Below, piece after piece: positions 29,510 to 47,105 of a stretch of DNA of 64,000 nt (positions within the stretch are counted from its first letter, which is position 1; each line of letters opens with the position of its first letter). A model generated the notes under the pieces. The model saw only the letters and a list, made by a program, of their open reading frames with translations, was not told where the DNA came from and made no database searches. The DNA is from an uncultured Methanosarcinales archaeon (GTDB taxonomy: Archaea; Nanobdellota; Nanobdellia; Woesearchaeales; JACJVW01). Position numbers and translations under genes: made by a program. The DNA is taken from NCBI GenBank assembly GCA_964473285.1, contig CAYYOI010000001.1:1689-65688 (forward strand), in the 5' to 3' direction.

Positions 29510-29559
29510 CTCTTAGCTTTATCGGGAACAAAAGTAAGACAACTAGCCTGGATGAATCA

Positions 29560-29997: not shown

Positions 29998-30177
29998 CTT
30001 AAACTACCTCAAAGGTCAAGCCATGAACACTGGTGAGCACTATACTGCCTAACAAACCAACTGTGCGCAACCAGTAGGGATACTTATGACAGGCTTGCCA
30101 GAATCCATTCCTAACCAAGATTGGCTGTTAGCTATATCTAATAAAATGAATATAAAATATAAATATTTTGTATACAC

Positions 30178-30525
30178 TCAAAAACTCAGGAATTTTTCAG
30201 CATACTCTCCTATGATAGGTATTGGCTTATTCTCTCCCTGGATTGCCTTGATAAGGCCAATCATCCACAGGACAAAAATACCCAGTTGTAGCAAAGAGCC
30301 TGCAAACATGATGATCCATCCTATAAAAGGTGCTGATGCGAGTATGCCAATAGCAATAGATATAACCAAGCTTACCAACAGGAGAAATAGCGCCTGCTTG
30401 GCATGGAATTTTGCAGACTTATCTTTCTTCATCTCTTCATCAACAAAGTACCAGATTATGCCTACCAAAAAATATGATAAGATTGCACATAATTTGCTTT
30501 TTTCCTTCTTTTTCATTTGTTCCAC
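30178..30525 (-). CDS. Small DUF4870-like membrane protein
   Basis: 115 aa with 'ILSYFLVGIIWY', 'HAKQALFL' and two or three TM helices. Confidence 0.5.
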   Translation of the reverse strand: MEQMKKKEKSKLCAILSYFLVGIIWYFVDEEMKKDKSAKFHAKQALFLLLVSLVISIAIGILASAPFIGWIIMFAGSLLQLGIFVLWMIGLIKAIQGENKPIPIIGEYAEKFLSF

Positions 30526-30850
30526 CCCAATAAGTGTAATAAGATATCACAAGTTTAAAAAGTTTGCTGCCTATTTGATTCATATAGATAGATTTATATA
30601 TTCGTCTTAGTCAAAAAAGATTATGAGTAATGAATTGTTCTTGGCAATACTTTACCTTGAGATGGTAGTAAGCTCATTTTTCCTTTTGTACTTCTGCATA
30701 AGGATAATAAAGATAACAAAAGGATCCAACAAGGGATAGCTTTTTTATGGACTTTTTAGTGTCCTGAATGGTATTGTCTCAATTGCAGGGATATTTCCGA
30801 GAGTTGCAACAGATCCTACTGTTGTTAATGTAGCTTATGGAATACAAAGC

Positions 30851-31354
30851 TTGTTGCTTTTCATAGAGACCTTCCTTATAATCATTGGAATAACTATACT
30901 TGCAGAGGTATTCGGGCTGGAATCAAAGGTTTTCTCAAGGAGAAACGTACTTGTTGTGATGGTGCTCAGTTTCTTTACGATCCTTGGTCTAGCAGGAAGC
31001 ATCTCTCCGCTTAAGATGTATTCTATCGTTTCCATGGTCCTTGTCATAGGACTGGCACTTACCATGCTTCCGGTATGGAATATAATGAAAACAACAAAGA
31101 AACTTCCATGGAAACTGCTTGTTGCATCGCATATAATGTCTATGATCTCAGTGTACTTGATTTTTACAGCCCTTGGCTGCTGCGCAGTACCAATAGATGA
31201 CCCGGCATGCCACTCAGGAGATTATCTTGTTATTCCTGCACCTTGTAGCGGGACATTCGTGACTGGTTTTTTTATATTTCTGATGGGACTTTTGATAGGA
31301 ACATGGCTTTTGACCGGATCATTCTATTACCTCTATAAAGGCCTTAAGATATGA
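30851..31354 (+). CDS. Hypothetical membrane protein, about 5 TM helices
   Basis: Hydrophobic ORF. No recognised motifs. Confidence 0.4.
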   Translation: MLLFIETFLIIIGITILAEVFGLESKVFSRRNVLVVMVLSFFTILGLAGSISPLKMYSIVSMVLVIGLALTMLPVWNIMKTTKKLPWKLLVASHIMSMISVYLIFTALGCCAVPIDDPACHSGDYLVIPAPCSGTFVTGFFIFLMGLLIGTWLLTGSFYYLYKGLKI

Positions 31355-31485
31355 GATGAAAAAGAAGGCCAAAAAAATACAGACACAAAGTAAAGAGAAT
31401 CAGGAAGAATAGAAGTAAATCTGACTTGAAAAATCTTCAAAAATCCAACAGTATACCATATTAATTCTGCGAGAACACAAAAGAT

Positions 31486-31557
31486 ATGTTCCATGAGATT
31501 CTCCTCGCATTATTGGTCGGTGTGGCTTCCGGGGTAATTACAGGTTTCTGGTTCTAA
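31486..31557 (+). pseudogene. 23-codon relic N-terminal fragment homologous to the start of the TctA-like gene at 47106. Putative displaced target-gene 5' end at the element junction.
   Basis: Translation 'MFHEILLALLVGVASGVITGFWF*' versus 'MFFEILLAIIIGVNAGIITGLTP' at 47106. About 65% nt identity over 66 nt. Confidence 0.5.
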
Positions 31558-31582
31558 GATTTTCTTGATTAATTCTAAATAG

Positions 31583-32098
31583 TTGAAATGTGGACACATC
31601 AAGGCTACAAGCCATATATGTATGTTTGGATATCAAAGAAATAAGATGGTATCCAAAATAAGAGATAAAGGGCAACTTGTCAGCATTTTTGATAAAGTTC
31701 AAAGGATCGAAAAGGATCTGAACCAGCTTTTGCCAGAAATGGATCGATCCAGGTTGATCAAAGCAATGTCTAAATGCAGACAGCATTACGAAGGTAAATT
31801 GTACTATGGCAGAAGAACATATGATCCTGAAGAGATCAAGAAAAGACCAAAATTAGAATTATCCGAGATTGAAAAGATCATCTATCATTATTTGATTGAG
31901 AACGACTTAAATCCTTCCACAACGTACAGATGGTTCTTAGCTACACGATTACCTTCAGATATCAAAGAACGTCTTTCTAATAGAGAAATACCTGTAAAGT
32001 TAGCCATGAGTATAGCTGCAAATAGAAGAAGGATCAGAGTTTCGAATCAAGGGCTTCTCATGATGGATGAGATGGTCAATATCATTGGAGGACTATAA
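31583..32098 (+). CDS. Hypothetical protein immediately upstream of, and overlapping, the integrase. The start is uncertain.
   Basis: ORF only. Basic, and its position is like an excisionase/regulator slot. Confidence 0.35.
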   Translation: MKCGHIKATSHICMFGYQRNKMVSKIRDKGQLVSIFDKVQRIEKDLNQLLPEMDRSRLIKAMSKCRQHYEGKLYYGRRTYDPEEIKKRPKLELSEIEKIIYHYLIENDLNPSTTYRWFLATRLPSDIKERLSNREIPVKLAMSIAANRRRIRVSNQGLLMMDEMVNIIGGL

Positions 32099-33137
32099 GA
32101 TGGATCATGAAATAATCAAAGAAGTGTTAGACATCACTAAAGAAGAAAGGATGTCTCGGAAAGCAATTTATGAGCAATTGCTATCAAGAGGATCTCTTAA
32201 GCCAGGAGAAGAAGAACTCTTTAACATAGTCATTGACAGAGCATTAGAAAACGAATTAATCCCTTCAAATAGAATTAGGATTTACAAAAAAGCAAGAGGT
32301 AAATTGCCAACGGTTTTCACAACAGAGCAATTAGGCTTTATTTTTGAGAATTGTAATAGACCTAAACTTGCAGTTGTCATGTGGTTTGGTTTCTTCTGTG
32401 GTTTAAGAATAAGAGAGGTCTGTAATCTTAAAATTTCAGATGTAGATTTAGATAGGAGAAAATTATTTGTCAGAGACAGTAAGAACCCACTTAGAGGAAA
32501 ACAAGGATATGGGAAAGATCGAGTGGTCAGCATCCCTCAAGTAGCAATAACTCCATTAAAGAGATGGATGGATGTCATCAAAGGAGGAGAATGGTTTATT
32601 CCAAGCATGCAAGATCCAAACAGACCTATACGAACAAAGACAATTCATGAACAGTTTAGATTTTTACTCAAAAAAGTAGGCTTGTCTGAAAAAGAGTATG
32701 AAAAAGGTTTTGTGCAAAAGAATCATGGAAAGCATAAACCAATGGTTAAATCTGTTTACAAATACAGGTTTCACACTCTTAGACACACTTATGCGACCTA
32801 CCTTCTTGAAAAAGGAGTTCCAATAGAGAATATTCAAAGATCATTAGGGCATAAAGACCTTGATACAACATTAATCTACGCACGTATTTCTGATAAGAAA
32901 ACTACTGAATATATCGATGATGCATTCAACAGACCACTCAAATTAGTCAATAAGGAAAGCATTCTCAATGAGAATAAACCAGTACAACAGACTAATTACA
33001 ACATCAACAACACAGCCAATGTTTTGGCTGTCAATAATAACACTCCTATATCAATATTGCAGAAAAGACTTGCAATGGGAGAAATAGATCTCGTAACATA
33101 CGAGCATCTATGTAAAACACTAAACGGAGGAAAATAA
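32067..33137 (+). CDS. Tyrosine site-specific recombinase (phage-integrase family)
   Basis: Catalytic residues in 'FFCGLRIREV' (Arg), 'HTLRHTYATYL' (HxxR) and 'LGHKDLDTTLIYARI' (His...Tyr). Confidence 0.85.
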   Translation: MRWSISLEDYKMDHEIIKEVLDITKEERMSRKAIYEQLLSRGSLKPGEEELFNIVIDRALENELIPSNRIRIYKKARGKLPTVFTTEQLGFIFENCNRPKLAVVMWFGFFCGLRIREVCNLKISDVDLDRRKLFVRDSKNPLRGKQGYGKDRVVSIPQVAITPLKRWMDVIKGGEWFIPSMQDPNRPIRTKTIHEQFRFLLKKVGLSEKEYEKGFVQKNHGKHKPMVKSVYKYRFHTLRHTYATYLLEKGVPIENIQRSLGHKDLDTTLIYARISDKKTTEYIDDAFNRPLKLVNKESILNENKPVQQTNYNINNTANVLAVNNNTPISILQKRLAMGEIDLVTYEHLCKTLNGGK

Positions 33138-33141
33138 GAAA

Positions 33142-33459
33142 ATGGAAACAAAACAAGAATTAGAACAAAATGTTACAACAAACGACTTAATCAACATGTG
33201 TGAATTAATCATACAGTTGGCAAAGAGGGAAGATGCAAAGACAAATGCTAAGAATATCCTGGCAGAGAAAGTTTATGAAGGCTGTCAAGATCTCTTTAAG
33301 CTTGCTTGTCCTAACTGTGGCAATGTGCAGAAGTCCCCTCTTGATTTTAGAGCATTTACTGAGGACTTAACTCTTGAAGATGAAGATAAACTTTCATGTC
33401 CTAAGTGCAATAAGGATCTTGGTGTTAAGTTAAAATATTCTGTTTATACGAGTTGTTAA
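33142..33459 (+). CDS. Small zinc-ribbon protein
   Basis: 'CPNCGNVQKSP...CPKCNKDL'. Confidence 0.45.
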   Translation: METKQELEQNVTTNDLINMCELIIQLAKREDAKTNAKNILAEKVYEGCQDLFKLACPNCGNVQKSPLDFRAFTEDLTLEDEDKLSCPKCNKDLGVKLKYSVYTSC

Positions 33460-33470
33460 AACTCGTACTT

Positions 33471-36400
33471 TTATTTTTTCTTCTTTCTTTGACTGTCTTT
33501 TCTATTGAGAATAAAGTAAGTTGCTGCTGCAATTATTAGAATAAATACCCCTATTCCTATGATATAAGGTATTATTGGTATTTTCTTTTGTGATGCATCA
33601 AGAGATTGATTTATTTCTTTGTTTTCTTCAGTTGTGTTCTTAATTTGCTCTTCCTGAATCATTAGTTCTTGTTTTGTAATATTCTCTTCAATTGCTTTGT
33701 CTTCTGTTATGTCTTCTTTTTCTTCTTCTCCTGTTATTGCAAAGTAACTGAATCCTGGCGTGTTTGCTGTGTACGTTGTGATTTTTGTGTTTGAACTCTT
33801 TAGTGTTGTTTCTAATTCAGTCCATGTGTTGTTTGTATATCTGAGCAATAAGATTGTGTTTTTGTTGATTTTGTTCTCTTTTATCCATGTGTTGTTGATT
33901 GTGAATTCTATTTCTGCTCCTTCTATTTCGTCATCATTGATATTTTTGGGATTGATCTCTAAGAATTGATACGTTTTCTTGTTGATTTTCTTTGTTGTCG
34001 GAGGCTCTTTGATGTTTTTAACTTCTATTCCTACACTTGATTTGTTTTCTTTTGCTGTAAGTCTTATCTTGCTTATGCTGATATTTTCTCTTGCTATTTC
34101 AAAATCTGATGGGCTTCCTGCTTTGATTTGGCTCACATACTTTGTTTGTGAGTTTTGATCAACTGTTGGAATGTATCCTCCAGTGCTTGATGAACTGCTT
34201 CCCCCTGATGATCCTCCATTGTTATCAGGTGGTGCTGTATAGGTCAATGATTTATTATTGTGATTATTGCTTAATGAGAGGTTCTTGTTTCCTGCTTCAT
34301 CTATGCTTGTGATGGCAAAATAGTATGTTTTTGAGCTGGTTATTGTGAATGTCGTGCTGTTTGTCGTTGTATTCTTTAAGAATGTCAGTGTTTCATTGAC
34401 ATAATCCTTGCTTGTATTGATGCTGTTTGCATACCATACCTGGTAAGTTGTTATTGTGTCAGTCATGTTATCTATGTCTTTTGTGATGTTTTCCCATTGG
34501 ATTGTTGCTGTATTGCCTGATTGAGTGATAACTATGTTTGATGGATTTTGAGGTTTTACTGTATCATTTGCAGTTATGTTATGAACTTCTGAATTGTTTT
34601 GATAATTGTAGTTTCCGAGTTGATCAACTGCAATTATAGAATACCAATAAGTCGTGTCATGCTCTACTTCTGCATCAAAATAATGGTTGTTTGTAGTGTT
34701 TGCAATCCATAAATTGCTCTTGATCTCAGTAAAGTTTGAAGTATTCTTGAATATCATGTATTTGTTTGCATCATTTACTTCTGACCATGTTATGTTTATG
34801 AATCCGTTTGGAGTTGCAGTCAAGTTATTTGCTGTGAATACTGGAGGAATAGGTGCTGTTGTGTCTATTATGAAGAAAAGTGTTGTTGAAGTTGTGCTGT
34901 CCTGGTTAATACTGTTTTCACAAGCAATACTCCAATTATGAGTTCCATCAGTTAAGTTATTGATTGATCTATTGGTTTCTTCTTCGCTATTGATGAGTAT
35001 ATTTGTTTGGTTTGTGGTTGCATCCAGGTTTAATGAGCAGTTTAAAGTGTCGTTGTTTTGATCAGTTGAGCTAAATGTAAATTGTATTGTATTATTTGAT
35101 GAGTTTGTGTTGTTTCCTGGTGCATTTAGAGTGATTATCGGAGAGCAGTATTGTCCCCATGAACCTTCATAATAATAATTACCTATTCCATTCTCGCAAA
35201 AGCTTATTCCTGTCAATGCTCCTCCGCTGGAATCTTTATTTAGATCAATTGATGGATTGTAAAATGAGTTATTGTATAGTTTCACATTACTTCCTATTGA
35301 GTTGTCGTTTATTGTCAAATTATTGTATAACTTGTTGTTGTAGATGCTAACGTTGTTTCTTGGATAGATCGTATAGCTTGGCATCATATCTGCATTGTCT
35401 TTTGAAGAATAAAGAGTGTTATCTTTTATCGTGATGTTTTCATGAATTGCATCTGATCCCATATTTCCCCAATAAATTAAGTCTCCTGAAACATTGAAGA
35501 TGTTATTGATGAGTTCGAAGTTTCTTGACAGCCTGTATATTCCTGTGATTGTTGGTCTTGCAGGGAAATGTGAATAGAATGAGTTGTTTTCTATTTGTAC
35601 CTGGAAGCCTGGCATGAAAGTTCCTGAAGATACTGCTTCTCCATAACTGATCCCTCTTGTGAAGTTTGTGAAGTTGTTATTTAGTATGTTCACTTCTTCT
35701 GTACCTTTGTCAATGTATAACGCTACATCAAAATTATAGGCATTACAGTTCCTAATAGTGACATTTGAAACAGTGTTTGAATATCCTATGTATGCAAAGG
35801 TTTTCCCATTATCTATATGTCCTGGATCTATGATTTTATTGTTACAATCAAGAAACACATTGCTTGTTGAAATGTTAAACAGTATTGTTTCTGCTCCTGT
35901 GAAGTTATACGTGCATAAACTATCTAATGTTAGTGATTTTGTCAGATCATATCCATTTGATAAATCAATGCAATCAATATTTAGAGGTCTTTGTTCTGAA
36001 AATCCTGTGTTACCAAGTGAATCAGTACAGCTGATACTCCAGTTATAGTTTCCTAAAGCGATATTAACTGTGATATTTGTCTCTTCTCCTGTATTTGCAG
36101 TAATTCCTGTTTGATTTACCAGGTTATTTATTGAGAGGTTGCAGGTTGTTGTTTGATCAAGGTCTTGTGTTTGAAAAGAGAATGTGACTGATTGGTTTAG
36201 TTGATAATGATCATGTCCAGGACTTAGTAAAGTGATTACTGGTTTTGCTTCATCTGTAATTGAATACAATGTTTGTCCTACTGTGAAAAGGATTGATCCA
36301 TTGATGATTGAGATGTCTGAAGGATTATATGATCCTCCAAAAGAGTACTCTCTTTCTATTGATCCATTGCTTGCATTGATCATGTACAGCTTCTTATTTC

Positions 36401-37448
36401 CTCCAATTAAGACATATTCTCCTGCTATTGAAGGATTGCTTGATGCAGAATTATCAACTGAAAGATTCCAAATCTTTACTCCTGATGAAGAATTTAGAGC
36501 ATAAAGCATGCCATCCCCACTTACATAAACAATGTTGTCCTTTGCGACTGCTGAAGATGAAAAGCCTCCAAAACCATTCGTTACAGTATAATTCCAAATC
36601 TTTGCTCCAGTATTTAAATTAAGTGCATGAAATGATTCAGTAAGACTTCCAGATCCTCCGATGCCAACAAAGATCTTACTATCATAATACAGTGGAGATG
36701 AGTAAGATATTGCTCCATTAAGTGTGGTATTCCATATTTCTGTCCCATCTGATATGTTTACTGCGTATGTTGTGTTATCTGCACTTGAAAAATAAATGAT
36801 TCCTTCATGAAGAGCTGGAGCAGTTGAAATATAGTTGTTTGCTGAAAAGTTCCAAATCATTGATCCGTCAGTATCATTTAAGGCATAAAGATATGATTCT
36901 TTTTGATCAGGCGTTCCTCTATAAACTCCTGTACCAAAGATCACATAATCATCATAGATTAAAGGAGCAGAATACATCATAGTAAATCCACTCGAATTAT
37001 AGTAAGGTGTGAAGTTCCATCTTTGACTTTGATCTGAAGCTTGTATAGAAATCAGATAAGGAATGTTTCCATCTACTGGAATGTAAAGATTTCCTTGTGA
37101 ATATGCCGGGTTAGAAACTATTTGATTGGGAGTATCATAAGTCCAAAGTATTGATCCATTTGAAGTATTGATTGCATAGACCTTGCTGTTTTCTGTTCCT
37201 AAATAAGCTATTCCTTGATTAATCAAAGGAGAAGTAAACGTTCCAGTAATCCCATCTAATGTGGTAAGGTTCTCTAAGCCATAATCTGAAAGATTAATCT
37301 CTCCTGGATAAACTCTGTTGTTATCAAGTGTTCTTCCCCACATGATCCATTCATCTGAAGAAGTGCTGTTTGAGTCTGCAAGAACAAATGTGCAGTTGAT
37401 CAGCAAGAAAATTGCTAAAGCTATGAATTTATATTTTAAAACCCCCAT
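33471..37448 (-). CDS. Large secreted, C-terminally anchored surface protein. It has PQQ-like beta-propeller repeats, a right-handed beta-helix (pectin-lyase-like) region and Fn3/Ig-like domains, and is rich in N-glycosylation sequons.
   Basis: Signal peptide. PQQ repeats 'YAINTSNGSILWTYDT', 'YALNDTDGSMIWNFS', 'YAVNISDGTEIWNTT', 'YALNSSSGVKIWNLS'. 'IRNCNAYNFDVALYIDKGTEEVNILNNNF' is beta-helix-like. C-terminal TM plus 'RKDSQRKKKK'. Confidence 0.75.
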   Translation of the reverse strand: MGVLKYKFIALAIFLLINCTFVLADSNSTSSDEWIMWGRTLDNNRVYPGEINLSDYGLENLTTLDGITGTFTSPLINQGIAYLGTENSKVYAINTSNGSILWTYDTPNQIVSNPAYSQGNLYIPVDGNIPYLISIQASDQSQRWNFTPYYNSSGFTMMYSAPLIYDDYVIFGTGVYRGTPDQKESYLYALNDTDGSMIWNFSANNYISTAPALHEGIIYFSSADNTTYAVNISDGTEIWNTTLNGAISYSSPLYYDSKIFVGIGGSGSLTESFHALNLNTGAKIWNYTVTNGFGGFSSSAVAKDNIVYVSGDGMLYALNSSSGVKIWNLSVDNSASSNPSIAGEYVLIGGNKKLYMINASNGSIEREYSFGGSYNPSDISIINGSILFTVGQTLYSITDEAKPVITLLSPGHDHYQLNQSVTFSFQTQDLDQTTTCNLSINNLVNQTGITANTGEETNITVNIALGNYNWSISCTDSLGNTGFSEQRPLNIDCIDLSNGYDLTKSLTLDSLCTYNFTGAETILFNISTSNVFLDCNNKIIDPGHIDNGKTFAYIGYSNTVSNVTIRNCNAYNFDVALYIDKGTEEVNILNNNFTNFTRGISYGEAVSSGTFMPGFQVQIENNSFYSHFPARPTITGIYRLSRNFELINNIFNVSGDLIYWGNMGSDAIHENITIKDNTLYSSKDNADMMPSYTIYPRNNVSIYNNKLYNNLTINDNSIGSNVKLYNNSFYNPSIDLNKDSSGGALTGISFCENGIGNYYYEGSWGQYCSPIITLNAPGNNTNSSNNTIQFTFSSTDQNNDTLNCSLNLDATTNQTNILINSEEETNRSINNLTDGTHNWSIACENSINQDSTTSTTLFFIIDTTAPIPPVFTANNLTATPNGFINITWSEVNDANKYMIFKNTSNFTEIKSNLWIANTTNNHYFDAEVEHDTTYWYSIIAVDQLGNYNYQNNSEVHNITANDTVKPQNPSNIVITQSGNTATIQWENITKDIDNMTDTITTYQVWYANSINTSKDYVNETLTFLKNTTTNSTTFTITSSKTYYFAITSIDEAGNKNLSLSNNHNNKSLTYTAPPDNNGGSSGGSSSSSTGGYIPTVDQNSQTKYVSQIKAGSPSDFEIARENISISKIRLTAKENKSSVGIEVKNIKEPPTTKKINKKTYQFLEINPKNINDDEIEGAEIEFTINNTWIKENKINKNTILLLRYTNNTWTELETTLKSSNTKITTYTANTPGFSYFAITGEEEKEDITEDKAIEENITKQELMIQEEQIKNTTEENKEINQSLDASQKKIPIIPYIIGIGVFILIIAAATYFILNRKDSQRKKKK

Positions 37449-37681
37449 AATTTAATTAAATTATTAAGCACACATATAAATTTTACTAGAAATAGCCTGA
37501 AAATACCAAATTCTCCACTGAAATCAATATCCTTTCAAAAATTCTAACAAAAAAGCCAGGCTATTTGATGCAAATATCTGTTACAAAAACATAGGTTCAA
37601 AATCAAGCCTTCTTTTTTAAAGAATTTTGTATGATCTTCTTGTTACAAAAAGACCTGTTTTAGAAACATTTAATAAAATCT

Positions 37682-38950
37682 ATGATTACTCAAAAAAATA
37701 TGTATTCCGAAATTCCAATTTCCAAAGAAGAATTTGATCTTGTTGAAAAAACTTTAAGACAATTTGCAACAATCAGCGAATTTTACTTATCCAAATTTAC
37801 TAAACTCTACTCAAAGGAGCAACTTGCACGAAGCCATCCCTTAGTTGCTACAATATTAATAAGCGATGGACATAAAGAAGATGATCCTAACGAATTTTTA
37901 ATTTACCTGGAGGAACTTTTGAAGTTTCATAAACAAAGAAACACTCCTGGTTTGAAAAAAGTTATTGAAGAATCAAATAATAACAATGGCGGCACTCAGA
38001 ATTTTAATCATTCTCTTTCAGAACTTGAAATTTGCAAATTTATCATAGATAATGGTAATGAATGTAAATTCGATGATGATTTACTCATCAAACTTGATGG
38101 TGAAGAGTTTTGTGTGGAATTAAAAACTTACTCGGATTTTGCACAATTATCTCATGCCATGAATTCAGTCAGAGAGATTGAATCTAATTATTGGATTGAA
38201 ATAGAATTTTTGAATGGTTTGTTTAAAGATAAAATTGAAAAAATTGAATCTACTGTGAAAGAAATACTGCTTAATCCTTCTAAAAATGATTTATCTCAAC
38301 AAATAGAAATTAGACTTAATGATGAATCTCCAGTCTATGCGTGGGTTAGGTTTAATGAAAAAGACAAAACTCATAATTATAAGACAACTGGAGTTATTTC
38401 TTCAACTAAAGAAGCTATTGGTGTTGATCATGAGACTGCAAGAGAACAAATAATGAATTCTCTCGAAAAAGCAAGATATCAACTAACATCAAAATCTAAG
38501 TTCAATGGAAAGAAGAAATTGATTTTTATTGATTTAAAGAATTCTATTAATGATCTTTCTGTTTTTAAGAGAAAAAGAGATTTTATTCAAATTCTATATG
38601 GTAAAAGTTGTGTTATGGGAAAAACAAAATATCATAAGACTTTTGATGAATATAAAGAGTGGGCTTTGAAAGGATTTTTAGACAGTTCTATTGATCCAAC
38701 TGATAAAAAATATTTTGTTTCTGATTTTCCGAATACGTGTAAAAAATATTTCTTAGTATCTAACAAAGATCGAATAAAGACTGAAGCATTGACTTTTCTT
38801 TCAGAAAAAGGGTTATTCTTTAATGATGATTTCAACTTAATTAATGGTGTTGTTCTTTTTGAGAAAAAAGAGATTTCGTTATTTTTGAATCCTTTTGTAG
38901 ATGAGAGTTTACTTATCCCTGAGAGTAAATTCCCAATAAGATTATTCTAA
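37682..38950 (+). CDS. Hypothetical protein, very AT-rich coding sequence
   Basis: ORF only. Lys/Asn/Ile-rich. Confidence 0.4.
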   Translation: MITQKNMYSEIPISKEEFDLVEKTLRQFATISEFYLSKFTKLYSKEQLARSHPLVATILISDGHKEDDPNEFLIYLEELLKFHKQRNTPGLKKVIEESNNNNGGTQNFNHSLSELEICKFIIDNGNECKFDDDLLIKLDGEEFCVELKTYSDFAQLSHAMNSVREIESNYWIEIEFLNGLFKDKIEKIESTVKEILLNPSKNDLSQQIEIRLNDESPVYAWVRFNEKDKTHNYKTTGVISSTKEAIGVDHETAREQIMNSLEKARYQLTSKSKFNGKKKLIFIDLKNSINDLSVFKRKRDFIQILYGKSCVMGKTKYHKTFDEYKEWALKGFLDSSIDPTDKKYFVSDFPNTCKKYFLVSNKDRIKTEALTFLSEKGLFFNDDFNLINGVVLFEKKEISLFLNPFVDESLLIPESKFPIRLF

Positions 38951-39634
38951 ATAGTTTTGATTTTTCTTTACTATTCTTTGAACTGATATGTAGCTTATTT
39001 TGAATCCTTCTTTTTTGAGTATCTTCTCAGCTTCTCGATAACTTCCTCCTTTTTGATATGCTTTAAGCACATCAAACTTGTTGATTTTTGTTGTAATCTT
39101 TGGTCTTCCTCCTGAGTATATTCCTTTGTCTTTCTTGTTTCTGATTCCTGATTTGATGCTTTGTGATAGGTTTTTGCTGTAATTGTGGCTTTGCCAAACC
39201 ATGATTTGTCTTACTACGTTCCATTTGATGTCATCATCGCTGTCTATGTTGTCATTTAGGCTTATGAATCTGCATCCGTATTTATGCACTATTCGATCCA
39301 GTTCTTCGTTTGCTATGTGTGGTTGTTGTCTTGAGAATCTTGACAGATCATAAACGATCATTACTGTGTATTGTTTCTTTCTGATTTTCTCTAGGAGAGT
39401 TTCAAACTTAGGTCTTTTTATTTGTTTGAATCCTGAAAGGTATTCATAGACTATTTCAAAGTTCCAATTAGAGTTCTGGCAGTATGTCTTGCACTCTTTG
39501 ATTTGTTTATCGACATCCTGTCGGTCTTCATCTGTACTGCATCTTGCATAGATGATTGCTTTTGTCTTATTTTTTGTCTTATTCATTGTCTTATGGGGTG
39601 TCGGTAAAGGTGTCGAGATCCTTTTTTTCGGCAT
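38942..39634 (-). CDS. Small serine recombinase (resolvase/invertase family) with a C-terminal HTH
   Basis: 'AIIYARCSTDEDRQDVDKQ' is the YARxST...Q catalytic Ser motif. 'VMIVYDLSRFSRQ'. C-terminal 'GGSYREAEKILKKEGFKISYISVQRIV' HTH. Confidence 0.75.
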   Translation of the reverse strand: MPKKRISTPLPTPHKTMNKTKNKTKAIIYARCSTDEDRQDVDKQIKECKTYCQNSNWNFEIVYEYLSGFKQIKRPKFETLLEKIRKKQYTVMIVYDLSRFSRQQPHIANEELDRIVHKYGCRFISLNDNIDSDDDIKWNVVRQIMVWQSHNYSKNLSQSIKSGIRNKKDKGIYSGGRPKITTKINKFDVLKAYQKGGSYREAEKILKKEGFKISYISVQRIVKKNQNYLE

Positions 39635-39843
39635 GTCGATTTCGACATTTTCGACATAAGTGAGTCACACTTATTTTTCATTGTTGAGCCACCTATAAGT
39701 GATTCTTTAAACGCTTCAACTATTAGAGTTACACTCTTCTCCCTACGGGAGAAGCCCATCCAATAATCTTTCAAAATCAAGCTTATTTTCTTCATTTTTT
39801 GCCTTTTTTCTCATCCCTACACACGCACACATATCGGCACAAA

Positions 39844-40272
39844 TCAAGTCTTCCTTAAGTGTGCAGATTTTTTGTTTTTGATGCCTGGAGTATTTTTTTG
39901 ATCTTCAAGCATTTTCTGAAGTTTCTTCTTGTCTTCAGCAAACATATTTACCAGGTACACGTTGTTTCTTGGTTTGCCTCCTGGCGTTATGTCTGTTTCG
40001 AACTTGTAAGGTTGTGTTTTTAGCATAGCAAAGCACCACAATGCGTAAGTTACTTGATGAGGATCTATCTTTGTCGCTTTTGAAATTCTGTTTGGACTGT
40101 ACCCTTGAGGTTTCTTGTTGTTCAATCTTGCTTCAATGTATTTCTCTTTAAGAAAGTCATAGACTGCAAAAGCATTTTTCTTTGATTTCTCTTGTACCCA
40201 CCAGTGACTTTCATTGAAGTAGAAAGGCACTTTGTTTGGAAGTTTTTCTTTGTTTTTGATGCTGAAACTCAT
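39844..40272 (-). CDS. Hypothetical protein
   Basis: ORF only. Confidence 0.35.
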   Translation of the reverse strand: MSFSIKNKEKLPNKVPFYFNESHWWVQEKSKKNAFAVYDFLKEKYIEARLNNKKPQGYSPNRISKATKIDPHQVTYALWCFAMLKTQPYKFETDITPGGKPRNNVYLVNMFAEDKKKLQKMLEDQKNTPGIKNKKSAHLRKT

Positions 40273-40274
40273 CT

Positions 40275-40739
40275 TTATGCCTCCAATACTTCTCTTACAA
40301 ATTCTTTGTTTAGTGCGATTAGTCTTCTTTTGCCAAATTTGTGAAGCTTGATTATTTCGCTGTCTTGCAATCCTTGAATTGCTCGTTCAAGAATTTGATC
40401 AGTCTTCAATAGTGGAAGTTTCTTTAAGAACTCTTCTTCAAACAGTATTCCTTCGTTTGCTAAGAGTTCTTTAAACAAGATCCATTCGTATTGATCATAA
40501 ATTGTGAGCATGTCATCAGGTTTGAAATGATTCAGAACCACTTCTGAAATGATCTGACGTTGTGCAATCACATCTAATTCTATCAAGAATGATTCGAACT
40601 CATCAGGAACTTCTCGCTCCCATTCAATCTCTTTTCCATCAAGGTACTCTGGCTTTGTCAATCCCATAAAAGTTTTGAATGTTTCAATTAGTTGCATTAT
40701 TATCATCCTCCTTTTCATCCTTAATAGTGTTAGATTCAA
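40275..40739 (-). CDS. Hypothetical protein
   Basis: ORF only. Confidence 0.35.
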   Translation of the reverse strand: MNLTLLRMKRRMIIMQLIETFKTFMGLTKPEYLDGKEIEWEREVPDEFESFLIELDVIAQRQIISEVVLNHFKPDDMLTIYDQYEWILFKELLANEGILFEEEFLKKLPLLKTDQILERAIQGLQDSEIIKLHKFGKRRLIALNKEFVREVLEA

Positions 40740-40921
40740 GTACGATAATGTTTACTTTTGCATCAGTTAATGCAGCTAATCTCGCATTCCTCACACTATA
40801 ATCAACAAAGAACTTAGTAACAACTCCTTCAATTCCTAAAGCTTCAGCTATTTCAGAGATCCTGACTTCATGTCTGACTTCTTGAGTTGCTCTCGTATTC
40901 ATTTTTGTTCTAACACTTTAT

Positions 40922-41146
40922 TTATACTGCCTCTTCTGAGACAGTTTCTTCAGTCACTGTTGATGTTGCTTTCTTCTTGTTCTTCCATAAAACGCCAACA
41001 TCACGTAACTTATCATTGATGTTCACAAATACTTTGAAGTGTGGTTGATTGCCTTCTCTGTTTTCATTTGGTAAAATCAAAATCTCTTTTTCTCCCAAAA
41101 CTCCAAAGTTCATGTTTCCTTTCAGATACTCTTCTCCTTCTTGCAT
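40922..41146 (-). CDS. Small hypothetical protein
   Basis: ORF only. It sits upstream of the primase-MCM gene in the same orientation. Confidence 0.3.
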   Translation of the reverse strand: MQEGEEYLKGNMNFGVLGEKEILILPNENREGNQPHFKVFVNINDKLRDVGVLWKNKKKATSTVTEETVSEEAV

Positions 41147-41182
41147 GTTTATCTCCTCCTTCCTTTTTGATTAAGGAATATA

Positions 41183-44100
41183 TCATTTCAAAACCTTCCA
41201 TTTTCCATGCTTAGGCTCAAAGATTTTTCCAATTTTAGATAATCTTGAGATCTCTCTTTCTACCTCTTCTTCGTTCATCTGACTTTTTTCTACAATTACT
41301 TCAAAAGGAGTGCCATCTCCAGGATCGTTTTTATTAATTATATCTGAAAAATCAAAAACACATTCTTCCTCAATAATTGCAAAACCCCTATCATTTATAC
41401 ATCTTAAAATCAATGCTTTTGCTTCATTCACATCCAATAAACTAGGTTTCTCTGCCAATCTTAACTTAGCACTTGCTTCTGTAAGTCTTATTACAGAAAG
41501 AATAAATCGAGAGAAGCTTTGTATGTGATTATGTTCAATAAAACTTCTTTGATTTTTACAAAACTGTCTTATTGAATTTTCTACATCTTCAGGTGTGGGT
41601 TTAAGCTCGTGCTTATTCAAAACATAATAAATATACTTTCTAAGAAAATCTTTATTTCCAATATTTTCTCCTTTATAATTATCGAGTATTTTGGAAATTA
41701 TTTTATCATCTTGTGGTTTTTCAGCCTTAAGTATTAAATCAAATCTATCAAATATGTGTTTATTTATGCCTAATGACTTATGATCTACTCGATCTCTTTC
41801 TTCTTTTATGTTTCCAGCACACAAAATCTTTGCGGGTGCTTTCATTTGTTGCTGTATGTTTGCTTTGCTTATCGTAACTGTCTTCTTTTCAAGAGGTTCT
41901 CCTAATTTATCTATGTCATCCTCTTTTGCTTTGTCTACTTCATCTATGAAACACAATCCTTGACCTGCTAAGACTACTGCTCCTGCATCTAGTGCCCACC
42001 CACCTAGAAATTCATCTCTTACTACAGATGCAGTTATTCCTACTGCTGAACTTTTTGTGGATTCAACAAATACTGATTTTGGTGCAATATCGCATGCTTC
42101 TAGTGCTAAATGAGATTTGCCAAGTCCCCAACCTCCAAATATGTAAATATTTAATGATTTTCTAGTGTTAATATTTTTATTGATGTTTTCATTAGTTACC
42201 AACTGCAATAATAATGCTTTTTTAATGTGAATATTTCCCTCAACGTGTGGTGCAAATATATTTGATAAATTGGTCAATACATCATTATTTTTTGAAAATG
42301 AAAAAATATCTTCCGTATCCTTTATCGAGAGATTAATTCTTCTATCGTCTATGGGGTATATGTTGTTTATGTCTAGAATAATTTCACTTTTTGTCAGCCT
42401 TTGTCCTGTTCTTGAAAATATTGGATCTTCTTTTATTATACCTATTGATCTAACTCTATTTCCTGCTTGTAATATTATTTGATCATTACATAGATTTCCT
42501 CTAATTAAAGCATGTATTTTTTTTACTTCTATTAGATTAGTATTAGATGAGATGTCTTCAATAATTAATGACTGTACATCAATCATCTCTTTATTTATTA
42601 AATGAAATTTTCCTTTTCTTCCACAAGCACACATAGATGGTTCTTTGAATTTCTTATCTAATTGAAGTACATTTATTATGTTGCCACAACTAGGACATTC
42701 AAATTTGGCAGAGGTTGTTTGTGGTCTTACATCTGATTTTTGCCTGATTGTACCATCTATATAGCACAATTTTCCAATATGTTTAGTTCGGATGTTGCCG
42801 ATAAAGAGTTCAGAGGAATTAGGCAAATCACTAAATCTAAAAGGAATATCCTTTCTCTCTTTATCTATTAATTCTACAGACATTTGAAATATCTTTAACA
42901 TCTCTTCAGGATTATCTAATAAGGCATCTGCTAATTCAGGACTATATCTATAAAAATCCTTAAAATTAATTATAACAGAATCTTCTTTTTTTCCATTATA
43001 AAGAAGATTGTTTTCTTCCAAAAACTCTTTTATAAGATTAATTCTTTCTCCAATCTCATAATGTTTATATTTGGTTTTTTGTTCTTGTTCTTCTTTTTGT
43101 TTTAAATCAGAAATTATTATATTTACCTCTTTCTCCCCTTCATTTGTTAAACCCCAAATATCAACATTATTAACTCCTTGAGATTTAATTTCTATTAATT
43201 CTTCAGAAGAAAGACCTGTGGATCGACCATTTCTTTTCCTTTCTATAGCTCTTGAAATAGTATTAAGTGGAAGATTTAATTTTTTTGAAATATCAGATAT
43301 TGATAATTCTGATTCATATAAACATAATAATATTTTTTCTTTAGTGGGTAAGTTGGGTAAGTTGGGTAAGTTGGGTAAGTTGGGTAAGTTGGGTAAGTTG
43401 GTAAGTGGGTAAGTATGTTTTAATTTATGGGTAACTTGCATATTTCCTGTTCTATCCTCAGAATTAGCCCGATTTGAAACATCAGGATACCCAAGATACC
43501 CATTTTTTGATTTTAATACATACTTTTTTTCTTTGAATATTTTTTCAATTTCTATTTTTTCAATTTTGGTTTTTTCATGGATATTTTGGATATAACTTTG
43601 TGAAGTTAATTCATCAGCATAAACTAGTAAATCAAGAATTTCTTTTATCTTAGAAGTTTTTTCAATTGGATCTGATGGAATTCTCTCGATTAATAAGTCA
43701 ATCAAATGTTTAGAATTAGTTAATAATTGATTCACTAATTCTTTTGCCTCATCAACACTTTTTTTTGCCACATATTCATTAATATCTATTTTGTCTTTAT
43801 TTTCTTCTTTTGGAAGTTCACATAAACGAATATTAGTCACTTTGTTTGTGAATAAGAATTTTGCAGTTTCTAAAGCACCTTCTTCTCCTGCTTTGTTGTC
43901 TTCGTTGTCGTTGATGATATAGACTTTTTTTAGGTTTTTAACTAGTTGTAATAGTTTTGCATGATCTTTTTTTCTAAATTGAACAGTGACTGGACTTATT
44001 GAGCTGAATCCTGATTGTATTAGGCTAATGCAGTCCGTAACTCCTTCTGTAATAATAGTATAATCTTTATTTAAGGTGTCTTCTCCATAGAAGTATTTGT

Positions 44101-44881
44101 TTTCAACAACTTTACTTATGTAAGGTCTTTTTTCATTTGGGCTGAATTGTTTTTTATACTTACTTTCTTCATATTTGTTATTTGGTGTGTTTTCTGTTTT
44201 TCTTGCAATAAACCTAACTACTTTGTTGTGTTTTAGGTAAGGATATATGATTCTACCTTTAAAAATAGGAATTATTGTATCTTGATATGCTGTAAAAAGT
44301 CCTGTTTTTAGTATATCTTCTCTTTGGTACTTGTTCAACAAATATGGGATTATTCTATTTTCCGTATCTGCATAGCCTATTAGAAGTCTATCAACTGTTT
44401 CATCAGTAAACCCTCTGATTCCTTTTTCAAACTCACGAATTGTATTACTTTTTATTTTATATTCATCAATATGTTTATGATAGAACTCTGCTATGTCTTT
44501 TTGAATATTAAAAACAAGCATTTCTTCTTCTTTTTCTTTTTTTAGTTCAGCAATCTTTTCCTTGCTTAGTTTTTTGAGTGGAACACCTGTCTTTTCAGAT
44601 AATATGTTTAAAGCTGTTGGGAAATCACAATTCTCACTAATCATGACAAGGTCAAAAATATCTCCTCCTTTACTTGCAGGACATCCTGCACTAAAACAAA
44701 TAAAGCCTTGATTGTCATAAGAAATGAAGCTATTTTTGTTCTTACTATTGTGAAACTTACACTCTCCTTGATATCGATCACCTAAGTGTTTCAGATGTAT
44801 TCCATAATCTGAAGCAAGATCTGAAATCTTTATCTTACTCTTGATTTCATTCTTTATCACTTCAAAATCAAAAGATTCCAT
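41183..44881 (-). CDS. Replication protein: a DnaG-type primase (zf-CHC2 + TOPRIM) fused through an (LPN)n linker and an HTH to an MCM-family AAA+ helicase
   Basis: zf-CHC2 'CKFHNSKNKNSFISYDNQGFICFSAGCPASKGGDIFDLV'. TOPRIM 'YTIITEGVTDCISL' and 'YIINDNEDNKAGEEG'. MCM zinc finger 'CPSCGN...CACGRKGKF'. Walker A 'IFGGWGLGKSH'. Walker B 'CFIDEVDKA'. MCM arginine-finger 'IFDRFDLIL'. Confidence 0.75.
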   Translation of the reverse strand: MESFDFEVIKNEIKSKIKISDLASDYGIHLKHLGDRYQGECKFHNSKNKNSFISYDNQGFICFSAGCPASKGGDIFDLVMISENCDFPTALNILSEKTGVPLKKLSKEKIAELKKEKEEEMLVFNIQKDIAEFYHKHIDEYKIKSNTIREFEKGIRGFTDETVDRLLIGYADTENRIIPYLLNKYQREDILKTGLFTAYQDTIIPIFKGRIIYPYLKHNKVVRFIARKTENTPNNKYEESKYKKQFSPNEKRPYISKVVENKYFYGEDTLNKDYTIITEGVTDCISLIQSGFSSISPVTVQFRKKDHAKLLQLVKNLKKVYIINDNEDNKAGEEGALETAKFLFTNKVTNIRLCELPKEENKDKIDINEYVAKKSVDEAKELVNQLLTNSKHLIDLLIERIPSDPIEKTSKIKEILDLLVYADELTSQSYIQNIHEKTKIEKIEIEKIFKEKKYVLKSKNGYLGYPDVSNRANSEDRTGNMQVTHKLKHTYPLTNLPNLPNLPNLPNLPNLPTKEKILLCLYESELSISDISKKLNLPLNTISRAIERKRNGRSTGLSSEELIEIKSQGVNNVDIWGLTNEGEKEVNIIISDLKQKEEQEQKTKYKHYEIGERINLIKEFLEENNLLYNGKKEDSVIINFKDFYRYSPELADALLDNPEEMLKIFQMSVELIDKERKDIPFRFSDLPNSSELFIGNIRTKHIGKLCYIDGTIRQKSDVRPQTTSAKFECPSCGNIINVLQLDKKFKEPSMCACGRKGKFHLINKEMIDVQSLIIEDISSNTNLIEVKKIHALIRGNLCNDQIILQAGNRVRSIGIIKEDPIFSRTGQRLTKSEIILDINNIYPIDDRRINLSIKDTEDIFSFSKNNDVLTNLSNIFAPHVEGNIHIKKALLLQLVTNENINKNINTRKSLNIYIFGGWGLGKSHLALEACDIAPKSVFVESTKSSAVGITASVVRDEFLGGWALDAGAVVLAGQGLCFIDEVDKAKEDDIDKLGEPLEKKTVTISKANIQQQMKAPAKILCAGNIKEERDRVDHKSLGINKHIFDRFDLILKAEKPQDDKIISKILDNYKGENIGNKDFLRKYIYYVLNKHELKPTPEDVENSIRQFCKNQRSFIEHNHIQSFSRFILSVIRLTEASAKLRLAEKPSLLDVNEAKALILRCINDRGFAIIEEECVFDFSDIINKNDPGDGTPFEVIVEKSQMNEEEVEREISRLSKIGKIFEPKHGKWKVLK
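43346..43414 (-). repeat. In-frame 9-nt tandem repeat encoding (LPN)n in the linker of the primase-MCM protein
   Basis: Plus strand 'gggtaagtt' x6 followed by degenerate units. Protein 'LTNLPNLPNLPNLPNLPNLPT'. Confidence 0.85.
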
Positions 44882-45081
44882 CAGAACTCACCTCTAATAG
44901 GATTTATAGTTAAGATTCCAGAAATAGATATGAGAATTTCTTGATCGAATTTATCTTTAATTGTTATTGACTCTTCAGAAATACTAATGATCATGCCAGT
45001 GTATCTGATCCTTGCATCTGGTTTTAGAAAGATTTTGACCTTAGTTCTTTCATTCATGTATTGTTTAAGTGTTTCTTTCAT
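44881..45081 (-). CDS. Small hypothetical protein
   Basis: ORF only. Its stop overlaps the primase-MCM start. Confidence 0.3.
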   Translation of the reverse strand: MKETLKQYMNERTKVKIFLKPDARIRYTGMIISISEESITIKDKFDQEILISISGILTINPIRGEF

Positions 45082-45111
45082 TCTTTCAATCGCCCCTTTT
45101 CAAATTGTTGT

Positions 45112-45339
45112 TTAACTTCCTAATGTTCTCAATCTATACTGATTGAGGTTGTGCTTGAAAGTTGCAGTCAGAGTATCTAATTCTCTAAGTAGCATACTTA
45201 AGCGTTCAAAATCATCGAATTTAGTGTGATCGCTTGTATTCTGCATTCTCCAAAGTAGTTTTCTCATCTCCTCATGCTTGTTTTTGCATGCGGTCGAGTA
45301 GTACCTGGATGCATCGTTATGATCTCTGAATTCTTTCAT
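45112..45339 (-). CDS. Small hypothetical protein
   Basis: ORF only. Confidence 0.3.
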   Translation of the reverse strand: MKEFRDHNDASRYYSTACKNKHEEMRKLLWRMQNTSDHTKFDDFERLSMLLRELDTLTATFKHNLNQYRLRTLGS

Positions 45340-45625
45340 TTTGATTTCTCTTTGATTTGATTAAATGGAGATTTGCCTGGAAATGAGGATTGCAACCCCA
45401 GGTAATCTCCAAATAACAACAAAAACAATGAAAATGAGTTTTGCCTACAATGGCTATTTTCTCACGACACCTTTGAGCCAATTCTTTGCAGTTCTGTTTG
45501 ATTCTGGTCGATTTTCTATGTCCCAGTGCCTCTTCCTACAAAGATCGCTACAAAATCTTGCAGAAGCGTAATAATGCTCTGATATTTTTCCTCCACAAAA
45601 CCTGCATTTGTTAATGTTTGTCAAA

Positions 45626-45766
45626 TTATTTGACCTCCAATACTAATTTTGATCCTGATCTTTGGATGATCACACTCCTAGCATCACCCACCCAATCCAA
45701 AGGTAATTTTACGAATTTTGAATAACTACCGATTGTTTGGATTTTCTCGATAATTTCTTCATTCAT
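45626..45766 (-). CDS. 46-aa AbrB/MazE/SpoVT-like small protein. It is below the ORF-track size cutoff and was found by manual translation.
   Basis: Translation 'MNEEIIEKIQTIGSYSKFVKLPLDWVGDARSVIIQRSGSKLVLEVK'. The ATG overlaps the stop of the RHH gene (ATGA-type coupling). Confidence 0.4.
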   Translation of the reverse strand: MNEEIIEKIQTIGSYSKFVKLPLDWVGDARSVIIQRSGSKLVLEVK

Positions 45767-45962
45767 GATTTGCAACCTCTTTTCTTTCGAGCAAATCTTT
45801 AATCTCGTTTAATCTTTGAATTACCAGGAGTTGATTGTCTAGAAGCCTTGATCTGGAAAAATCTGAGACTGAACCATATCCGAGCATACCAGCTATTTGC
45901 TCAATTTTTTCCTTTTCTTCTTTGCTCACTCGAATCCGAATGAGATGATTTTTAGGCTTCAT
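45759..45962 (-). CDS. Ribbon-helix-helix (CopG/Arc/MetJ-like) protein
   Basis: 'IRIRVSKEEKEKIEQIAGMLGYGSVSDFSRSRLLD'. Confidence 0.6.
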   Translation of the reverse strand: MKPKNHLIRIRVSKEEKEKIEQIAGMLGYGSVSDFSRSRLLDNQLLVIQRLNEIKDLLERKEVANHE

Positions 45963-46173
45963 TTTGGCTCAAGTATCGTGTTAGGGCTTGACGACAGATT
46001 GTAGCTTGAGAGGTAAGACTAGCTTTTGCTAAAAGCTCTAATTTTTCTTTACAATTCTCATCAACTACAAACGTAATCACACGATTTTTATTCATAATAA
46101 ATAATTTCGAATAAGAGCATATAAAAAAATCGAGAAGAGAAAAAATAGATAGAACAAAAATACTCCAAACCAT
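45952..46173 (-). CDS. Ribbon-helix-helix-like small DNA-binding protein
   Basis: 'RVITFVVDENCKEKLELLAKASLTSQATICRQALTRYL'. Confidence 0.5.
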   Translation of the reverse strand: MVWSIFVLSIFSLLDFFICSYSKLFIMNKNRVITFVVDENCKEKLELLAKASLTSQATICRQALTRYLSQNEA

Positions 46174-46259
46174 TTCATAGAAAAAATATTATTCAGAAAT
46201 TACTTAAATCTTACAAAATATTACAAACATTTATATATGGGTGTATATCTAAACTAATT

Positions 46260-46877
46260 ATGAAAGATAAATACTTACCTTTACTTAGTATAGATGTTGC
46301 AATTATGTGTGGTGTTCTATCTTCTATAAATTCATCAGTATCTTCAGCCGGATGTAAAAGAGCAACTGTGATAAAATGGCTTCAGGAAGATGAAAATTTT
46401 AAATCTGTTTATCTTGATAGCAAAAAAACGAGACAGTCGCAAAAGAAAATTAAAGATGACTCATTTAGAGTGTATCTTTATGATAAAATAAATGCCTTTA
46501 TCAAAAATAATAAGGAATACTTTGAATTTCTTGACGATCAAATTCTTCCTAATTACCAAAATCTTTATGCAATATGTTTTGAAGATAAAAGAAAAAAAAC
46601 TAAGAAAACAATTGAGGAGTTGGAGAAACCAATTAGAGAACGGATGATAAAACTTTTGGAAAAACAGTTTGGTAACGAAGAACTAAGAAAAAAAGGCGAA
46701 CTAAAATATTATTCAAATAAACAAAATAAAGATTTTAACAACTACATATCATTTATAGACCGACAAAAATGTATTAGAAACTTAAAGAAGCTTAGACTAC
46801 TTCATGTGAAGGATCAAGAAGGGGTGGAGATAATAAAACAGACAATCAAGCTATTATCACCCAAACAGACAAAATAA
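46260..46877 (+). CDS. Hypothetical Lys-rich protein
   Basis: ORF only. Confidence 0.35.
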   Translation: MKDKYLPLLSIDVAIMCGVLSSINSSVSSAGCKRATVIKWLQEDENFKSVYLDSKKTRQSQKKIKDDSFRVYLYDKINAFIKNNKEYFEFLDDQILPNYQNLYAICFEDKRKKTKKTIEELEKPIRERMIKLLEKQFGNEELRKKGELKYYSNKQNKDFNNYISFIDRQKCIRNLKKLRLLHVKDQEGVEIIKQTIKLLSPKQTK

Positions 46878-47105
46878 AGGTAAATTTATTCCGGGTGTTC
46901 AACTAAACAAAGAAAATTATATAAAGAACCTACCACATAACAAAAAATAAGCATCCAAACAGAATACTGGTTTGGTGTCTTGATAACGTTCCGGGAATGC
47001 ATTAAATTTTCGGCATGTGTTTATAAAAAAACCTTTCAGAATTGATCGGAAATCTTTCGAACGAGAAGGCGTGAAACTTATAAATTTCGAGGATATAAGC
47101 GTTTT

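Follow-up and report, generated by a model that had tools for sequence, protein, structure and literature searches.

The window analysed here, the whole stretch of 64,000 nucleotides from an uncultured woesearchaeal archaeon, carries at positions 47106-48287 (+) a gene for a 393-aa protein of the TctA family (PF01970, E 4.5e-45, 154.5 bits vs a gathering cut-off of 28.9). The translated ORF covers positions 1-422 of the 423 positions of the profile, and the protein is identical to one annotated in a Candidatus Woesearchaeota genome. Upstream of the body of this gene lies an interval of low GC content (32.5%, vs 40.8% in the rest of the window), and at the far side of that interval stands a short ORF, 31486-31557 (DNA ATGTTCCATGAG...ACAGGTTTCTGGTTCTAA, translation MFHEILLALLVGVASGVITGFWF*), which resembles the beginning of the TctA gene now in use (MFFEILLAIIIGVNAGIITGLTPG). 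The features of the locus are collected in Table 1.

Table 1. Features of the TctA locus and of the interval that interrupts it. L001 is a contig of another woesearchaeal genome, L010 a contig with a related integrase; positions are those of the window.
Feature	Position	Strand	Remark
Left host flank	30178..31354		blastn: L001 8755-9937, 86%; match extends up to the stop codon of the gene upstream
TATA-like box CATATTAA	31457..31464	+	22-29 nt upstream of the stranded ATG
Stranded TctA 5' end, 20 codons, MFHEILLALLVGVASGVITG	31486..31545	+	host-side half of attL
attL core ACAGGT, most likely exchange region	31540..31545		longest identical block where similarity ends
Integrated element, 15,620 bp counting one core copy	31546..47165		low GC, absent from L001
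Element-derived tail TTC TGG TTC TAA (FWF*)	31546..31557	+	closes the stranded ORF
Conserved 150-aa ORF preceding the integrase	31646..32098	+	candidate recombination accessory protein
Tyrosine integrase, intact	32067..33137	+	PF00589, E 3e-25
Cargo, 1325-aa secreted or anchored protein, PQQ-like beta-propeller	33471..37448	-	PF13360, E 4e-30
Small serine recombinase, resolvase/invertase type, 230 aa	38942..39634	-	PF00239, E 1.2e-26
Replication protein, DnaG-type primase fused to MCM helicase	41183..44881	-	Pfam and NCBIfam
NikA-like ribbon-helix-helix protein	45759..45962	-	PF21983, E 2e-7
Right arm of the element	46880..47041	+	homology with the final 160 nt of contig L010
TATA-like box TTATAAAT	47078..47085	+	21-28 nt upstream of the in-use ATG; read from sequence
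Element-supplied first 20 codons of TctA now in use, MFFEILLAIIIGVNAGIITG	47106..47165	+	element-side half of attR, ends in ACAGGT 47160-47165
Host-derived remainder of the TctA gene	47166..48287	+	85.5% nt identity to L001 10052-11177

The tyrosine integrase probably starts at the ATG near 32100, and its six catalytic residues, R114, K139, H236, R239, H262 and Y271, do not vary among 20 homologues. Among named proteins it comes closest to XerA-like recombinases; an assignment as an orthologue of XerA, the archaeal chromosome-dimer resolvase, was rejected, because the protein reaches 105.6 bits against the NCBIfam equivalog NF040815, below the cut-off of 220, and is therefore a relative only. 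The 150-aa ORF stands upstream of the integrase also in L003, L004, L005, L009, L010, L135, L137, L143 and L144, with 95, 85, 75, 54 and 52% identity in five aligned relatives, and its conservation equals or exceeds that of the integrase. It has no match in Pfam, PHROG or PDB, and only 74 homologous clusters make up its small family in a set of 1.84 billion representative proteins. The serine recombinase scores below the cut-offs of the IS607 and resolvase families.

The domains recognised in the replication protein are Zn_ribbon_DnaG, DNAG_N, Toprim, MCM_N, MCM_OB, MCM and MCM_lid in Pfam, and dnaG and MCM in NCBIfam. The fusion is 1232 aa long; its primase half is of the bacterial type, a CHC2 zinc ribbon followed by Toprim, and between the primase and MCM halves a 9-nt tandem repeat occurs five times (43345-43398) and encodes LPN repeats. 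The PF21983 family of the NikA-like protein is present also in the elements of L003 and L010, and the element of the window has further ribbon-helix-helix proteins. The beta-propeller gene has a counterpart in L004 (7314-8605) with 88% nt identity, which, relative to the integrase, points the other way. Neither virion genes (capsid, portal, terminase, packaging) nor conjugation genes were found in the element with Pfam or PHROGs, and many of its small ORFs have no match. Since virion genes were not detected, the interval looks like an integrative plasmid-like element; it may alternatively be an unknown kind of virus.

The two TctA 5' ends match each other without gaps and in frame from the ATG onwards, 31486-31545 against 47106-47165, at 43 of 60 nt (72%) and 13 of 20 aa. 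Over a span of 21 codons, 44 of 63 nt are identical and, counted by hand, 13 of 21 residues, five of the eight mismatches being L/I or V/I; the sequence-only reading had drawn attention to this resemblance, which stands, and had counted 14 of 21, which is one too many. Identity at codon positions 1, 2 and 3 is 12/20, 18/20 and 13/20, respectively, and that the second position is best kept is expected of two diverged coding copies. The similarity begins at the base before the ATG and ends right after ACAGGT, and outside that span, on either side, no similarity between the two copies was seen. When the 63-mer was compared with both strands of the 64-kb window, the next-best gapless match amounted to 34/63, which places 44/63 far outside chance. 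In addition, a profile was built from the N-terminal 20 residues of 120 TctA homologues: the stranded fragment scored 34.6 bits (E 5e-8), and the in-use N-terminus, whose sequence is included in the profile, scored 30.0 bits. The stranded fragment thus groups with TctA homologues outside the window, whereas the sequence-only reading had still allowed for a chance similarity that no third homologue would share.

Both starts are preceded by a TATA-like box. The one at 31457-31464 is the putative promoter of the stranded start, and the one at 47078-47085 has a geometry that would fit an archaeal promoter for a leaderless mRNA. The short tail that closes the stranded ORF (TTCTGGTTCTAAGATTTTCTTGATTA) occurs in the elements of the window and of L004, and a diverged form of it in that of L003. 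Joining 31486-31545 in silico to the sequence from 47166 onward restores an intact in-frame TctA start, MFHEILLALLVGVASGVITGLTPGIHVN.

The closest TctA homologue (P0002, 89% aa identity) is borne by L001, which comes from another Woesearchaeota genome. There the upstream gene and TctA adjoin and the flanks are joined without the element, which makes the locus an empty site. Both junctions were aligned with this unoccupied relative, as the sequence-only reading had proposed: the homology ends on the left at 31354 and resumes on the right at 47160, the A of ACAGGT, which is where the two copies of the window stop resembling each other (L001 10052-11177 matches window 47160-48285 at 85.5% in blastn). 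The earlier claim that an element is integrated in the 5' end of a protein gene, between two copies of that end, is borne out by this empty site, by the drop in GC content, by the intact integrase and by the seven recurrences described below. The right junction is confirmed by an independent Logan contig (L218, SRR11308339), in which element genes are contiguous with TctA. When the last element gene was looked up by exact protein sequence, this attR junction was the only result; the 150-aa ORF gave none.

Between these limits L001 is of less help. Its intergenic region and 19-codon N-terminus are 8/20 identical in aa to each of the window copies, and neither local DNA alignments nor the overall in-register identity with the two copies were significant. 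The octamer CATATTAA, however, is found also upstream of the L001 TctA ATG at the same distance (offset by 1 nt), with p ~0.01 in an in-register shuffle. The N-terminus of TctA in L001 (9938-10057) is atypical in its own right, being one residue shorter (MFGIIASILAGVLLGVVTG) with the rest of the protein 91% identical, and the TctA 5' end of L001 may itself have been replaced or have diverged unusually fast. No conspecific empty site was found for the element of the window.

Within the TctA family, the in-use N-terminus is 8/20 identical to the sister protein P0002, though the two are 91% identical over the rest, and 17/20 identical to P0040 and P0109, though these are only 51-54% identical over the rest. 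As judged from these identities, the N-terminus now in use is in phylogenetic conflict with the remainder of the protein. The first 20 residues of TctA diverge faster than the rest in general, with a mean identity of 0.83 in pairs at least 90% identical elsewhere, and the 8/20 of the pair P0001/P0002 (0.40) is the lowest N-terminal identity among the 51 such pairs. Two further interpretations were dropped. P0007 and P0008 (L215/L216) are near-identical proteins with different N-termini, whose loci show ordinary, gradual DNA divergence and no element, so that widespread N-terminal swapping among TctA genes is not claimed. P0109 was considered as a source or remnant of the element-supplied N-terminus and was rejected, as its locus is an empty site and its homology is limited to the coding sequence.

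Perfect identity between attL and attR extends over 6 nt only, ACAGGT at 31540-31545 and 47160-47165, a short core within or next to which the overlap region would lie. Conservative recombination needs the same core at both junctions, and only ACAGGT fits the boundary data on the left as well as on the right. The sequence-only reading had named both ACAGGT and ATGTTC as candidate cores. The former agrees with the resumption of L001 homology at 47160 and with the fragments that end at Thr-Gly codons, and the latter is at odds with the L001 boundary, with L009 and with L135; the aligned sequences therefore support a crossover at or next to ACAGGT. The junction borders on the N-terminal block that is best conserved in the TctA family (TG-x-x-PG-x-H-x-NL); integrases that target tRNA genes likewise use a conserved sequence. 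The recombinant junctions predicted from the joined sequence are GGTGTGGCTTCCGGGGTAATTACAGGTCTTACACCGGGTATTCATGTG for attB and GGGGTGAATGCCGGGATAATCACAGGTTTCTGGTTCTAAGATTTTCTTG for attP. No convincing inverted-repeat core sites were seen by eye around the window junction, nor were repeated arm-type motifs found in the reconstructed attP. Viral contigs were scanned with the integrase, with a degenerate att pattern and by integrase alignment, and exact-protein look-ups were made, yet an attP or circular form of the window element was not found. The scans of viral contigs yielded no close match, and their sole att-pattern hit (L002) was discarded, as it falls within a phage gene of high GC content that is unrelated.

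The contigs of collected integrase homologues were examined for a TctA fragment directly upstream of the module of 150-aa ORF and integrase. Besides the window, seven loci with integrases 39-93% identical to its own have such a 5' fragment, 19-20 codons long, which brings the total to eight; the seven stem from six or more independent samples or genome assemblies. In all seven the fragment ends at Thr-Gly codons, passes at once into element DNA and meets a stop within one to seven codons. Ordered by the identity of their integrases to that of the window, these are L004 (93%, two tandem fragments), L003 (85%), L010 (67%, a partial fragment, as the contig starts inside it), L009 (52%, a whole element with both junctions), L005/L056 (51%, a fragment with a GTG start), L144 (41%) and L143 (39%). 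Beside integrases of 37% identity or less, no TctA fragment was detected. From locus to locus the fragments vary, and so does the DNA upstream, and the DNA directly to the right of the fragments is conserved among related elements; the host flanks of L004 and L003 have no blastn match to the window. At the other end, the right arm of the window element aligns with L010 (z = 16 in local alignment, blastn E 4e-9). Three Logan contigs from different runs (L010, L011 and L012) have one and the same starting point, 30 nt to the left of the junction, which suggests that the assembly graph branches and that alternative left flanks coexist in those samples, for example attL together with attP, or several hosts.

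The most complete of these loci, L009, holds an entire 9-kb element, with the left fragment at 713-772, the integrase at 1324-2358 and the host-derived part of TctA from 9862. A small serine recombinase is present there too. The right copy in L009 has no start codon (it reads EISFKLYAWIFTG, followed by ITPGIH), and the block common to both junctions is GGCATAAC, which lies 3 nt further right than ACAGGT; the overlap region may accordingly differ between lineages or reach slightly beyond the Gly codon. Compared with the N-termini of the eight closest relatives of the L009 TctA, which are 74-82% identical to it over the rest of the protein, the left fragment, MFIELLSFTLIGILLGVITG, has 12-15 of 20 residues in common (14-15 of 20 with seven of them), and this match lies at or near the top of the distribution for 235 homologues, the mode of which is 8-10/20. 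As the left fragment matches the N-termini of the host clade, the displaced fragment in L009 is the host's own start.

In L135 the two ends of such an element are joined. Positions 717-860 are homologous to the right arm of L009 (9702-9845; 73% over 148 nt, E 3e-16), directly followed by a homologue of the left end of L009 (L135 975-2448 vs L009 871-2330), and the switch from right-arm to left-end homology occurs at the Thr-Gly codons (within L135 717-1010). From this order, L135 would represent the attP-like form of an L009-type element that our model predicts, although the junction of a tandem array could look the same. The layout of L137 (~625-890) is the same as that of L135. The TctA-like stubs of L135 and L137, M*AQNITG and ..YP*LVTG, have no usable start, and together with that of L009 they indicate that rescue of the target gene is not general in the element family.

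From these results, a mechanism may be proposed that, in our judgement, is very probably correct as a whole: a 15.6-kb element of a woesearchaeote (DPANN) inserted itself in codons 19-20 of TctA and replaced the start of the gene. The attP of the element would carry a TATA-like box, an ATG and 20 TctA-like codons that end in the core. The element's own tyrosine integrase would recombine this attP with codons 19-20 of the host TctA in a conservative site-specific exchange, possibly assisted by the 150-aa protein; that this integrase is the catalyst, and the exact positions of cleavage, we infer from the arrangement of the locus. The body of the host gene (47166 onward) would then be read from the element-supplied promoter and first helix (47106-47165), with the full-length ORF kept, and the pre-integration 5' end with its own TATA-like box (31457-31545) would be left at the opposite junction, where it runs into element DNA and ends in FWF*. 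According to this model, an element-free TctA behind 31355-31485 would begin MFHEILLALLVGVASGVITGLTPG and not MFFEILLAIIIG. The boxes presumably act as promoters and the chimeric protein presumably works, and the element may still be able to excise. The sequence-only reading had proposed just such a replacement N-terminus with displacement of the old start. This describes the window well, but that the window fragment is the ancestral start is no more than probable: since the L001 N-terminus is unlike both copies, the ancestry of the fragment rests on the shared octamer (p ~0.01) and on the analogy with L009.

It is for this reason that a refinement of the proposed mechanism, rather than a true rival to it, deserves attention, namely that the site is a hot spot of serial integration and that the stranded fragment is a start delivered by an earlier, mostly lost element of the same family. 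L004 displays such a layout directly: between 2252 and 2604 a frameshifted fragment (~2252-2305) is followed, after 240 bp, by an intact one (2545-2604) that has its own TATA-like box, and the 3' end of the spacer resembles the promoter region upstream of the L003 fragment (z = 4.6), so the tandem fragments look like serial integration with decay of the earlier element. Directly left of the junction, moreover, the window and L004 share 25 of 27 nt despite the unmatched host flank of L004, which may point to serial integrations or to an exchange of a more complex kind. The spacer between the upstream gene and the TctA start is also longer in the window than in L001 (131 nt vs 63 nt), and neither the spacer nor the fragment aligns with L001. 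Against this stand the octamer that the promoter regions of the window and L001 share in register, the lack of resemblance between 31355-31485 and any known right arm of the family, and the left fragment of L009, which is clearly of the host type. Taken together, we consider an earlier element as the source of the window fragment possible, but rather less likely than a displaced host start.

The polarity of the exchange could in principle be reversed, with the fragment derived from the element and the whole right-hand gene (start MFFEILLAIIIGVNAG) native; recombination would then have occurred at the ATGTTC edge or upstream of it, and attP would carry the left copy, MFHEILLALLVG. A block of 7 identical nt, TATGTTC, does lie at the 5' edge, and the L001 N-terminus, which matches neither copy, does not speak against such an arrangement. 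However, L001 homology starts at 47160 and not at the ATG, the fragments vary with the flanking genes but are followed on the right by DNA that related elements conserve, the right copy of L009 lacks the ATG region and its left fragment matches the host clade, and L135 switches homology at the Thr-Gly codons. These observations largely refute a native right-hand start, which we regard as very improbable. We take much the same view of integration by the serine recombinase (38942-39634), or by some other route, with the tyrosine integrase as a passenger. While a small serine recombinase occurs in both the window element and L009, no Resolvase family was found among the genes called in the fetched parts of L003, L005 and L010, and in all eight loci the fragment is tied to the module of 150-aa ORF and tyrosine integrase. 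With 230 aa the protein also belongs to the small resolvase/invertase size class, which usually resolves multimers or inverts segments and does not integrate elements. Finally, short hydrophobic peptides can look alike by chance, and the window stems from a metagenome-assembled genome, in which chimeras might occur. The 44/63 nt against a window-wide maximum of 34/63, the profile E-value of 5e-8, the recurrence of the arrangement in independent samples and assemblies and the right junction in an independent Logan assembly refute a chance resemblance or an assembly chimera for practical purposes, and its likelihood appears negligible to us.

The proposed mechanism, in which the element replaces the start of its target gene, has its closest parallel in bacteria. 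In SXT/R391, attP is recombined by a tyrosine integrase with an attB within a conserved protein gene of the chromosome, in its 5' end (PMC2791158). As at prfC, the attB of the window element is in the 5' coding region, and the ATG and TATA-like box lie in element DNA, leaving a hybrid ORF of 393 aa. Hochhut and Waldor reportedly found in 1999 that SXT supplies a new promoter and 5' coding sequence and that the hybrid gene stays functional. SXT/R391 elements are bacterial, ~100 kb long and conjugative, with nearly identical attP and attB, whereas the element described here is archaeal (DPANN), 15.6 kb long and without conjugation genes, and its 60-nt duplication, in TctA, is 72% identical with 6 nt identical at the junction. 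Membership among the SXT/R391 ICEs was rejected, since the XerA-like integrase is unrelated to Int-SXT and TctA is not prfC; the likeness is one of analogy only.

Among archaea, integrated elements of Thaumarchaeota have been surveyed by comparison of occupied and empty loci; they use tyrosine integrases, protein-gene targets and short att sites, and all 14 of their protein-gene insertions are in 3'-distal regions (PMC6563490). The window element, in contrast, targets the 5' end and brings a promoter and a start codon with it. A diverged copy of the displaced segment is also carried by phage 21 and e14, which integrate at the 3' end of icd in E. coli, keep the gene intact and leave a homeologous relic at the far junction. 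They share with the window element the diverged copy and the relic, but it is the 3' end that is replaced, so a promoter is not needed, and their host is a bacterium. Archaeal integrases of the SSV type, called 'suicidal', have the attP inside the integrase ORF, and the gene is split on integration (PMC7253208, PMC8371274). The integrase of the window element is likewise an archaeal tyrosine recombinase of a mobile element; it is intact (32067-33137) with the att core ~500 nt upstream (31540-31545), and it is therefore of the non-suicidal kind and not SSV-type. Krupovic et al. are said to have described MCM-encoding integrated plasmids and proviruses of archaea in 2010. The window element resembles these in being small and integrative with a replication module built on an MCM helicase, and differs from them in the fusion of MCM to a bacterial-type DnaG, in its DPANN host and in having a protein gene and not a tRNA gene as the target.

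In the papers searched, neither a TctA attachment site nor this element family is described. As far as we found, the strategy of replacing a 5' start is well known in bacteria and has no prior description for a TctA gene or for this archaeal group. Notable features are the DPANN host, the 5' protein-gene target and the conserved partner of the integrase. For the family as a whole, we lean towards the view that these are undescribed small plasmid-like integrative elements of Woesearchaeota/Nanoarchaeota, with a XerA-like integrase, an obligatory 150-aa partner and the 5' end of TctA as att site; that some lineages carry a spare promoter and first transmembrane helix, which would keep the target alive; and that repeated integration and decay at this hot spot would pass different first helices of TctA from one DPANN lineage to another.

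The mobile elements of DPANN archaea are poorly charted, and with a defined att site, the limits of such elements can readily be located in DPANN genomes. A module of integrase and partner with a predictable target is a possible recombination tool. The general understanding of site-specific integration is unchanged by the finding, which adds an archaeal parallel to SXT/prfC, where the element repairs the gene it has broken.

Apart from the element, three other stretches of the window, 26479-27167, 28338-30178 and 48286-49677, are absent from L001 as well. One of the stretches missing from L001 encodes, as read from the translations, CBS-domain-like and PEBP-like proteins. In the one just downstream of TctA, two overlapping ORFs without a Pfam match, 48275-48949 and 48907-49509, may be a single gene split by a frameshift.
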